Positions 17,516 to 23,561 of a stretch of 61,258 bases of DNA are shown here, one piece after another. A program made the translations under genes and the position numbers. How positions within the stretch are numbered: position 1 is the first letter of the stretch; each line of letters begins with the position of its first letter. This DNA comes from Nanobdellota archaeon. Its GTDB lineage: Archaea > Nanobdellota > Nanobdellia > Woesearchaeales > GW2011-AR9. Location of the stretch: contig JBFMFP010000001.1 of NCBI GenBank assembly GCA_040751885.1, forward strand, positions 1-61,258, in the 5' to 3' direction. The notes under the pieces were generated by a model. That model saw nothing but the letters and a program-made list of their open reading frames with translations. It made no database searches and was not told where the DNA came from.

Positions 17516-17639
17516 GCCCCAGTAGCTCAGTGGCTAGAGCACCTGACTTGTAGGGTGCTTTTATCTGCTATGTTTGCAAAATTTAAAAAAAGCATAGCAA
17601 GATATCAGGAGGTCGTGGGTTCAACTCCCACCTGGGGCT
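17516..17639 (+). tRNA. tRNA-Thr(UGU) with a 51-nt canonical 37/38 intron (17553-17603)
   Basis: GCCCCAG/CTGGGGC acceptor, GCTCAGTGGCTAGAGC D arm, CCTGA-CTTGTA...A-TCAGG anticodon arm, GTGGGTTCAACTCCCAC T arm. The intron contains a gctatg/catagc hairpin. Confidence 0.85.
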
Positions 17640-21399: not shown

Positions 21400-23289
21400 A
21401 TGGCCGATATACTTAAAGAGATAATTAAACTGCTGCCGGAAGGAAAAATATCTGATGCAGCATTTGAAGGCGCTAACATAGTGCTGTACACAAAGAACAA
21501 AGATTTTTTCATAGATAATGGCGGAACGATCCGCAATGCCGTCAAAGAGTTCAGGAAGAGGATAGAGCTGCGTCCCGATCCTTCTTTATGCATGGAGCTG
21601 GAAGAGGCTAAAAAGTTTATCCAGCAAATTATCCCCGAAGAAGCCTGCGCACAGGAATTTATTTTTGATCCGCCCAGGTCACAGGTGATCATTCATGCTG
21701 AAAAGCCCGGGTTGGTCATCGGGAAGCAGGGAGAGTACCTTAAAGAGATTCGTGAGAAGACCTTCTGGGTGCCATTAATTCAACGCCTGCCTCCGATAAG
21801 GTCCAGGCTGATTGAAGGCATCCGTTCAGTCCTATACGAAAATGCTGCTGAACGGAAAAAATTTCTTGACAAGACCGGGCACAGGATTTATGACGGCTGG
21901 ATCAGGGAAAAGAAACACGAATGGGTTCGCCTATCCTGTTTAGGTGCATCCAGGCAGGTTGGGAGGAGCTGTTTCTTATTGCAGACGCCGGAATCAAGAG
22001 TTCTTTTAGATTGCGGCATAGATCCTGGGCAGGAGGGAGCAGAGTCATATCCATTCCTTGATGCTCCTGAATTTAATATCAGCGAGATAGACGCAGTTGT
22101 GGTTACACATTCGCACTTAGACCATTCCGGGCTGATACCTTACCTGTTTAAATTTGGATATACAGGCCCGGTTTACTGCACTTTACCGACAAGGGATGTC
22201 ATGTCCTTGCTGCAACTGGATATGATTAAGATTCAGCGTTCTGAGGGTAAAGAGCCCATTTACACCAGCGAGGAGGTCAGGCAGATGGTCTTACATACCA
22301 TTTGTCCGGATTATGAAGAAGTTACTGACATTACTCCCGACGTCAGGCTGACTTTCTATAACGCTGGGCATATCTTAGGCAGCTCTATTGTCCATTTGAA
22401 CATAGGCAACGGCTTGCACAATTTTGCTTATACCGGTGATTTGAAATATGCACGCAGCAATGTTCTGGAATCTGCAGACACACAGTTCCCCAGGCTTGAA
22501 ACGCTGATGATTGAGTCCACTTATGGCGGGAAAGAAAATGTAATTATGGAGCGGGAAGCTGACGATTACATGATTGACGTCATCCAGAAAACGTTTGAGC
22601 GCGGCGGGAAAGTTTTAATGCCTGTCTTGGGAGCAGGAAGGGCACAGGAAGTTATGATCATTGTTGAGCGGCTGATGCGCGAGAAGAGAATTCCTGAAGT
22701 ACCTGTTTATCTTGACGGGATGCTCTGGGACGTTACGGCCATACATACGGCTTACCCGGAATTCTTAAACAGGAATATAAGAGAACATATCTTTCACAAA
22801 GAGAACAACCCTTTTCTTTCACCTGTTTTTAAGCAGGTAGGCTTGCCGAAGGAAAGGAAGAAAATCATTCTTGAAGAAGGTCCGTGCCTGATCTTAGCTA
22901 CTTCGGGTATGCTTATCGGTGGGGCTTCAGTTGAATATCTCAAAGAGCTCTGCGAAGGCAAGAAGCACTCCCTCGTTTTTAGCTGCTACCAGCCGCCTGG
23001 GACTTTGGGCCACCGCATCAGGGAAGGCGAGAAAGAGGTAATGTTCCGCGATAACGGAAAGGGACAGGTGTATAACATCAATATGGAAGTGCATAAGGTT
23101 GAGATAACCGGACACTCTGACAGAAAGCAATTGATGAATTTTATCAAACGGTGCAATCCCCAGCCGCGTAAGATCATCATTGTGCACGGTGAAAGTTCAA
23201 GATGCTTGGATTTGGCTTCTTCTGTACACAAGACTTTCAGGATAGAAACAGTAGCTCCAAAGAATTTGGAAGTGATAAGGATAAAGTAA
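21400..23289 (+). CDS. aCPSF1/FttA-type KH, metallo-beta-lactamase and beta-CASP ribonuclease
   Basis: 629 aa. N-terminal KH region, VTHSHLDHSG (HxHxDH), beta-CASP C-terminus. Confidence 0.9.
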   Translation: MADILKEIIKLLPEGKISDAAFEGANIVLYTKNKDFFIDNGGTIRNAVKEFRKRIELRPDPSLCMELEEAKKFIQQIIPEEACAQEFIFDPPRSQVIIHAEKPGLVIGKQGEYLKEIREKTFWVPLIQRLPPIRSRLIEGIRSVLYENAAERKKFLDKTGHRIYDGWIREKKHEWVRLSCLGASRQVGRSCFLLQTPESRVLLDCGIDPGQEGAESYPFLDAPEFNISEIDAVVVTHSHLDHSGLIPYLFKFGYTGPVYCTLPTRDVMSLLQLDMIKIQRSEGKEPIYTSEEVRQMVLHTICPDYEEVTDITPDVRLTFYNAGHILGSSIVHLNIGNGLHNFAYTGDLKYARSNVLESADTQFPRLETLMIESTYGGKENVIMEREADDYMIDVIQKTFERGGKVLMPVLGAGRAQEVMIIVERLMREKRIPEVPVYLDGMLWDVTAIHTAYPEFLNRNIREHIFHKENNPFLSPVFKQVGLPKERKKIILEEGPCLILATSGMLIGGASVEYLKELCEGKKHSLVFSCYQPPGTLGHRIREGEKEVMFRDNGKGQVYNINMEVHKVEITGHSDRKQLMNFIKRCNPQPRKIIIVHGESSRCLDLASSVHKTFRIETVAPKNLEVIRIK

Positions 23290-23299
23290 GACCTAAACG

Positions 23300-23307
23300 T
23301 TTATAAA
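23300..23307 (+). promoter_or_regulatory. TATA-like box tttataaa about 27 nt upstream of the first GCCAGCG copy
   Basis: It is the only TATA-like element upstream of tRNA-Ser. None lies upstream of the second copy. Confidence 0.4.
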
Positions 23308-23333
23308 ATCAAACAGGAATTCTTTCCATTATT

Positions 23334-23561
23334 GCCAGCGTCGCATGCACAGAAATAGATTAAGATTTCTGGTCGCGACTCGGCATTACCATGCCAGCGT
23401 CGCATAATCTGGTACTTTGCGTAAGCAAAGGTTTACGCGAAGCGGAAAATTGCGCAGGTCTTGAAGCAGCTTTAAGAAAGTCGCATCAAAATGGCGGTTA
23501 AAGCCACCTAAAAGTAAACCTGTCCCTTCGGGGATTCTCGGTTCAAATCCGAGCGCTGGCG
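23334..23561 (+). tRNA. tRNA-Ser(UGA), class II, with at least 2 introns and a duplicated 13-nt 5' end
   Basis: After removing about 33 nt (~23417-23449, D-loop/D-stem boundary) and 23466-23516 (37/38), the sequence reads GCCAGCG-TC-GCA-TAATCTGGTAC..-TGC-G-CAGGT-CTTGAAA-ACCTG-TCCCTTCGGGGATT-CTCGG-TTCAAAT-CCGAG-CGCTGGC-G. GCCAGCGTCGCAT occurs at both 23334 and 23393. Confidence 0.7.

Follow-up and report, generated by a model that had tools for sequence, protein, structure and literature searches.

The 59-nt element that precedes the tRNA-Ser(UGA) gene analyzed here is most likely a leader that is cut off the precursor, and not a third intron of the gene. It opens by repeating the first 13 nt of the tRNA, folds into a hairpin that covaries among relatives, and represents an order-wide variant of the pre-tRNA leader. 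The overall reading that we favor, and regard as rather probable, is that the gene is expressed with a transcribed, structured leader that is removed by RNase P and with two BHB introns that are spliced, and that the leader module is the sequestered remnant of a gene copy.

The gene lies in a stretch of 61,258 nt (hereafter the window), which has an archaeal character, a G+C content of about 40%, and genes for a proteasome beta subunit and for an aCPSF1-type nuclease, the second of which ends at 23289. On the raw window, ARAGORN reported no tRNA and the sole Rfam tRNA match was a Thr gene at 17516, so that neither program detected the tRNA-Ser(UGA) gene in the window or the region, and an Rfam scan of the region matched no family. 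The unspliced sequence yielded no ARAGORN call; only once both inserts, 23414-23448 and 23466-23516, had been removed was a tRNA-Ser(tga) called, in a product of 83 nt. This product has the long variable arm, the UGA anticodon and the discriminator G73 of a class II tRNA-Ser, and a constrained fold gives the cloverleaf, as the initial annotation had proposed. The gene is a tRNA-Ser(UGA) of a Woesearchaeota-type DPANN archaeon, and its parts are as follows.

23393-23561, + strand: tRNA-Ser(UGA) gene, from the ARAGORN call on the spliced sequence and the constrained fold
23393..23413, + strand: exon 1, tRNA positions 1-20 (copy B and D-loop AATCTGGT)
23414..23448, equivalently 23415-23449, + strand: intron 1, 35 nt at 20/21, with a BHB (H = TCTG/CGGA) and a 12-bp h' hairpin
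23449..23465, + strand: exon 2, tRNA positions 21-37, with the anticodon TGA at 23462-23464
23466..23516, + strand: intron 2, 51 nt at the canonical position 37/38, with a relaxed BHB whose H is 3/4 atop the anticodon stem
23517..23561, + strand: exon 3, from position 38 to the discriminator G73, with the long variable arm and the T-arm; CCA is not encoded

The D-loop insert had been described as a non-canonical intron of about 33 nt with an ambiguous junction. Relatives that lack the insert read GGTATTGCG, and the insert is therefore 35 nt long and located between GGT(A) and (A)TTGCG. Solely the placement GGT/A...AAA/A (slashes marking the junctions), that is 23414-23448 at position 20/21, produces a full BHB, with H 4/4 (TCTG/CGGA), h 3/4, h' 4/4, and the bulges GT/A and AA/A; its h' is the stem of a 12-bp hairpin with a fold energy of -15.9 kcal/mol and a z of -4.8. 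Helix H is 4/4 in all 13 related Ser genes that carry an intron there, and it covaries, occurring as TCTG/CGGA, TTCG/CGAA, TTCG/CGGA, CCTG/CGGG, TCCG/CGGG, CCTG/CAGG and CCCG/CGGG. The length was thus revised, and the term non-canonical holds for the position of an otherwise normal BHB intron. The 51-nt intron had been placed correctly at 37/38, since the intron-less orthologues read CTTGAAA. Its BHB is a relaxed one, in which h, formed by the anticodon stem, is 4/4 but H reaches 3/4 and h' 2/4; the intron is 86% identical to that of the relative L007. Both introns are of the ordinary archaeal BHB class, the D-loop intron being at a known kind of non-canonical position. An 8-bp helix suggested to link intron 1 with the boundary of intron 2 and the exon does exist, at 23429-23436 and 23514-23521, one base off the start first given. 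The link between the introns is not conserved, the 3' partner being absent from L008, L009 and L011, which carry the same intron, and by our own rough estimate chance alone would give about 0.4 such 8-bp pairs in 228 nt.

Interrupted tRNA genes are the rule in this organism, as concluded from the few intact tRNA matches in its whole genome of 1.42 Mb (5 by Rfam, 9 by ARAGORN, and 12 intact T-arms). Another tRNA gene of this genome (G000:C14:1790-1975) has three inserts, in the D-loop, the anticodon loop and the T-loop, and the first of these is a homolog of intron 1 of the Ser gene, which makes it a member of an intron sequence family common to different tRNA genes. The sequence CTTAGCGCAGCTTGGGGTTGATAAGGGGCAAAGCCACTT recurs at a spacing of 56 or 87 nt on contigs C53, C75, C88, C112 and C119 of the same genome. 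One gene for the splicing endonuclease EndA was found in the genome (PF01974 match of 99.4 bits; G000:C70:12723-12983, locus L093:1474-2253, minus strand). The encoded protein has 259 aa, with a Lys/Glu-rich N-terminal extension followed by a single alpha-type unit. The genome is rich in D-loop and T-loop introns despite this one alpha-type EndA; broad splicing specificity is usually linked to (alpha-beta)2 or epsilon2 enzymes (PMC5829648).

Upstream of the tRNA, the 13-nt direct repeat GCCAGCGTCGCAT occurs at 23334 (copy A) and at 23393 (copy B), as first noted from the sequence; counting the T at -1, the repeat is the 14-nt TGCCAGCGTCGCAT, at 23333-23346 and 23392-23405, with a spacing of 59 nt. 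The leader module at this locus, together with its presumptive promoter, consists of the following parts.

23300..23307, + strand: TATA box TTTATAAA, 26 nt before copy A
23334..23346, + strand: copy A, decoy of tRNA positions 1-13, probable transcript start
23347..23374, + strand: core hairpin, GC(A) + CAGAAAT / loop AGATTAAG / ATTTCTG + GT, then an unpaired C
23375..23384, + strand: 'anti' segment GCGAC-TC-GGC, complementary to copy A at its positions 7-11 and 1-3, and to copy B equally
23385..23392, + strand: linker ATTACCAT, a shortened version of the conserved CATTCAYTACAYTCAY linker

The leader hairpin has a fold energy of -20.9 kcal/mol (z = -4.1). A screen of the whole genome for further tRNA genes whose 5' end is duplicated returned this gene alone. 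By eye, the hairpin has no GA/AG tandem and no boxes, and the 'ACA' that follows copy A lies within the covarying stem (AC/GT, CC/GG); a K-turn, C/D-box or H/ACA reading was rejected on these grounds.

The similarity to related genomes found by BLAST starts exactly at copy A, and the relatives share one order of elements: a copy of positions 1-13, two paired nucleotides and a bulge, the hairpin, G-K-C, the anti segment, the linker and the tRNA. The anti segment is complementary to about positions 1-11 of the copy (a perfect 9 bp in L040, L051 and L053), and the linker is 8-25 nt long, C/A/U-rich, and often CATTCAYTACAYTCAY. In an alignment of 27 units, all nine pairs of the hairpin core have changed on both sides, and 90.8% of the cells are paired; none of 500 shuffles reached these pairing values, and controls with slid partners gave 35-44% paired. 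Compensatory substitutions in the hairpin are found between genera within one family. A covariance model built from the same alignment (R1) matched 29 of the 151 genomes sampled across the order (Woesearchaeota by record titles), belonging to 28 of 144 genera, and gave one weak match only in a sample of the class outside the order. The recurrence of this architecture in 29/151 genomes argues that the upstream copy did not arise by chance. Up to eight units occur per genome, with one to four in tandem before a gene, and the host genes are those of tRNA-Ser with the anticodons UGA, CGA, GGA and GCU and of tRNA-Thr(UGU). From lineage to lineage, copy A and the anti segment change along with the acceptor of the host tRNA. 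The module is patchy, often standing before one Ser isoacceptor and missing before others, and some units have seemingly decayed (L040, L061, and the orphan L113). Matches to the exact pattern include MAGs of Candidatus Woesearchaeota and Nanoarchaeota; those in bacteria (L041, L046, L049, L052, L057, L058 and L060) are coding sequences or simple repeats, and were rejected as units.

Several individual loci are worth recording. In L099 (G061:C23:15680-15792), the unit begins 4 nt past the 3' end of another tRNA, and the two may be co-transcribed. In L113 (G306:C4:60-520), a truncated copy B comes after the orphan unit, but a tRNA is missing. Intron-less Ser genes make up 15 of 44 unit-bearing and 2 of 17 unit-less cases, in a small sample of genes that are not independent.

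Two lines of evidence bear on the roles of the two copies. The first comes from six relatives in which copies A and B differ in the acceptor (L019, L077, L078, L034, L007 and L066). In each of them the 3' acceptor strand pairs at 7/7 positions with B, compared with 4.5-6.5/7 with A, and since this full pairing is with B only in 6/6 genes, copy B is the functional 5' strand. The second is the position of the promoter. In 30 of 46 unit-bearing genes, a TATA-like 8-mer precedes the first copy by 24-29 nt, and in 11 of 15 unit-less genes one precedes the tRNA +1 by the same distance; 44 of the 46 unit-bearing genes have none before copy B. The box at 23300-23307, 26 nt before copy A, suits the first copy as initially suggested. 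Having a TATA element at the normal distance to copy A and not to copy B would mean that the unit is transcribed and that the 5' end of the tRNA is made by a cut; the spacing thus points to a primary transcript that starts at copy A and includes the leader. We propose that RNase P cuts after 23392, as the genome harbors an RNase P RNA gene (RF00373, 119.6 bits, G000:C86). Across the order, RNase P RNA was detected in 138 of the 151 genomes, among them 27 of the 29 that have units. Of the two interpretations offered in the initial annotation for the upstream copy, it is the structured 59-nt leader that agrees with the conserved, covarying hairpin, the placement of the TATA box and the presence of RNase P RNA.

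Nearest-neighbor calculations reveal that copy A is a real competitor for the 3' end of the tRNA, the conformer in which it takes the place of copy B being equally or more stable. For the leader joined to the spliced tRNA, the fold with the normal acceptor forced has -55.1 kcal/mol vs. -56.6 kcal/mol for the copy-A conformer; the wrong conformer is as stable as the normal one, or more so, in 20 of 22 intron-less unit-bearing relatives (median difference -1.3 kcal/mol). If so, correct maturation would need kinetic control. According to the pathway that we propose, transcription from the TATA box would start at or just before G23334, as judged from the spacing, and the first 59 nt would form the leader, in which copy A pairs with the anti segment around the covarying hairpin, ahead of the short C/A/U-rich linker. 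Copy A would be locked away at this stage, as the leader hairpin is expected to be complete before the tRNA body is made. With A and anti transcribed and paired first, B would be the sole free partner once the 3' end appears, and copy B (from 23393) would then pair with it. RNase P would cleave between 23392 and 23393, the leader would be discarded, and the outcome would become irreversible. The splicing endonuclease would excise the 35-nt (20/21) and 51-nt (37/38) introns at their BHB motifs and RtcB would ligate the exons; the enzymology of the endonuclease and of RtcB is established, and the BHB motifs themselves are observed here. The role of the module would accordingly be to sequester a competing decoy.

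Regarding its origin, we consider it most likely that the module descends from a partial copy of the tRNA gene, located upstream, which retained the promoter and has since shrunk, and that such a remnant would be tolerated only as long as pairing keeps its decoy 5' end sequestered. In well-preserved units, GCG-A-CGCUG(K)C resembles the 3' strand of the D-stem joined to the 3' strand of the acceptor, and thereby suggests an internally deleted upstream gene copy. Several observations would fit turnover at the DNA level around these genes. Tandem units are identical in places, some repeats reach as far as 19 nt before G1, and a nested Ser gene occurs in L087. Partial copies of the 3' end, in mirror image, are present in 15 of 44 unit-bearing Ser genes vs. 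1 of 18 unit-less ones, and none was found within the window. Several features count against the favored explanation. The copy-A conformer is calculated to be at least as stable as the correct one, copy A and the anti segment follow the host acceptor more faithfully than a merely tolerated relic suggests, and no reason was found for the conservation of the linker motif.

The mirror-image 3' units run from the tRNA through a spacer with a complement and a hairpin to a copy of the 3' end (the 3' strand of the T-stem, the 3' strand of the acceptor and the discriminator) and a T-rich trailer; up to three occur in tandem, e.g. in L053:1760-2120, L045:2820-3260, L075, L100, L101 and L102. In L087 (G103:C18:12879-15947), a complete tRNA-Ser(GCU) gene is nested in the T-arm region of another Ser(GCU) gene, which is intron-bearing and has its own 5' unit. 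The 5' linker of the CATTCAYTACAYTCAY type is complementary to the GAATGTARTGAGTG and GAACGTAGTGAG motifs of 3' spacers and T-loop introns, at L076 (G119:C20), L075, L107 and L100; L076 has a perfect 13-nt complement, TCCGTTACACTCC and GGAGTGTAACGGA. This complementarity of the linker and the 3' spacer may be a dispersed repeat or a pairing of leader and trailer.

An alternative to a remnant, which we regard as possible and rather unlikely, is that the module is a functional RNA or switch: a selected, bistable, order-specific device that gates the folding of the RNase P substrate, or a released mini-helix that is a small RNA with its own job. The two pairings open to the anti segment are iso-energetic (-20.9 kcal/mol for the A:anti hairpin vs. 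-21.2 kcal/mol for anti:B), as would suit a switch, and covariation barely separates them (84.9 vs. 85.3% paired). The two informative cases, L019 and L034, both favor B, the anti segment following B, and not A, at position 5. The persistence of the module across the order with compensatory changes, its conserved linker motif and its tandem arrays of up to four units also speak for a function. Against a function stand the patchy distribution in 29 of 151 genomes, often at one Ser isoacceptor and not at others, the units that look decayed, and the base after the stem, in the place of the discriminator, which varies by eye among A, T and G; no ligand or partner was identified. This variable base also makes a mini-helix mimic for SerRS unlikely. 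If the switch were real, the anti segment could bind the decoy or else the true 5' strand, and would constitute a cis-acting control or quality checkpoint on the maturation of tRNA-Ser and tRNA-Thr.

Less likely still, in our estimate improbable, is that the module is a DNA scar, untranscribed or irrelevant, and that the tRNA has an unrecognised start adjoining copy B. Such a scar might be left by slippage, template switching, integration at a tRNA gene or a small palindromic insertion. The identical tandem units would then reflect recent DNA turnover, and the mirror 3' copies in the 15 of 44 unit-bearing genes lie behind T-rich terminators, where a function at the RNA level is doubtful; a dispersed repeat is found in the linker and, in the opposite orientation, in the 3' spacers, and nested Ser genes exist (L087). 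A scar is however at odds with the TATA-like elements, which are at the normal distance from the first copy and missing before copy B in 44 of 46 genes, and with the compensatory substitutions in the hairpin between genera of one family; moreover, phage and plasmid records showed no similarity to the region.

The other interpretation in the initial annotation, that copy A is the true exon 1 and that 59 nt comprising the spacer and copy B are spliced out as a third intron by the archaeal endonuclease, could draw on the TATA box positioned for copy A, the thermodynamically competitive copy-A conformer and a genome that splices nearly every tRNA, but is very improbable given the 3' strand that matches B in all six genes with divergent copies, the uncompensated changes in copy A of L007, L077 and L078, and the absence of a suitable BHB. 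In the scan of the candidate intron 23347-23405, none of the 14 equivalent junctions combined H with flanking helices, and at A-to-B junctions the central BHB helix would have to form between two identical sequences. The lone junction with H 4/4 (p=10) is a GCGU self-pair with two G-U pairs, has h 0/4, and depends on lineage-specific sequence.

The favored reading, a leader removed by RNase P in a gene with two BHB introns, can be compared with several known systems. Multi-intron archaeal tRNA genes with BHB introns at non-canonical positions have reportedly been described in Thermoproteales and in ARMAN-type ultrasmall archaea, by Sugahara, Fujishima and Kanai and by Marck and Grosjean (see also the review PMC4090602). 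The present gene resembles them in its two introns, D-loop and 37/38, each with a BHB, and in an intron family shared among genes; unlike the Thermoproteales and ARMAN cases, the lineage is a Woesearchaeota-type DPANN one in which one alpha-type EndA gene was found. Like 5' leaders removed by RNase P, the module is a predicted transcribed extension before +1 with a pyrimidine at -1, in a genome with an RNase P RNA gene. In contrast to such leaders, it is built from the tRNA's own first 13 nt and their complement, can compete for the 3' end, is conserved across the order, and can be repeated up to four times.

In Nanoarchaeum equitans, tRNA transcription is reportedly leaderless (Randau et al. 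2008). The genes studied here are similar in that a TATA element lies about 25 nt from a +1 purine, in unit-less genes and before copy A; they differ in the presence of RNase P RNA and in that unit-bearing genes would need a 5' cut. As in split, permuted and nested tRNA genes and in att duplications, tRNA termini are duplicated beside the gene (with a nested Ser gene in L087). Unlike in these, the repeat is 13 nt long with a 46-nt structured spacer, and neither an integrase, an element, a BHB-forming complementary leader nor a phage or plasmid match is present. A literature search returned no description of a leader in which the 5' end of the tRNA is duplicated and joined to its complement, and a preprint on Asgard tRNA introns contained nothing on leaders or repeats.

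For annotation, these results mean that standard tRNA finders miss nearly all tRNAs in this organism (ARAGORN finding 0 in the window, and the two programs 5-9 in the genome), and the spare 5' copy could also mislead exon calling. The leader would offer a concrete example, open to experiment, of an RNA for which the order of transcription must decide whether it folds correctly. The active turnover of partial tRNA-gene copies at both ends of these genes bears on the origin of disrupted tRNA genes. Some tRNA genes in a major group of uncultivated host-dependent archaea are thus predicted to combine introns with a conserved leader made of a duplicate of the tRNA's 5' end and its complement.
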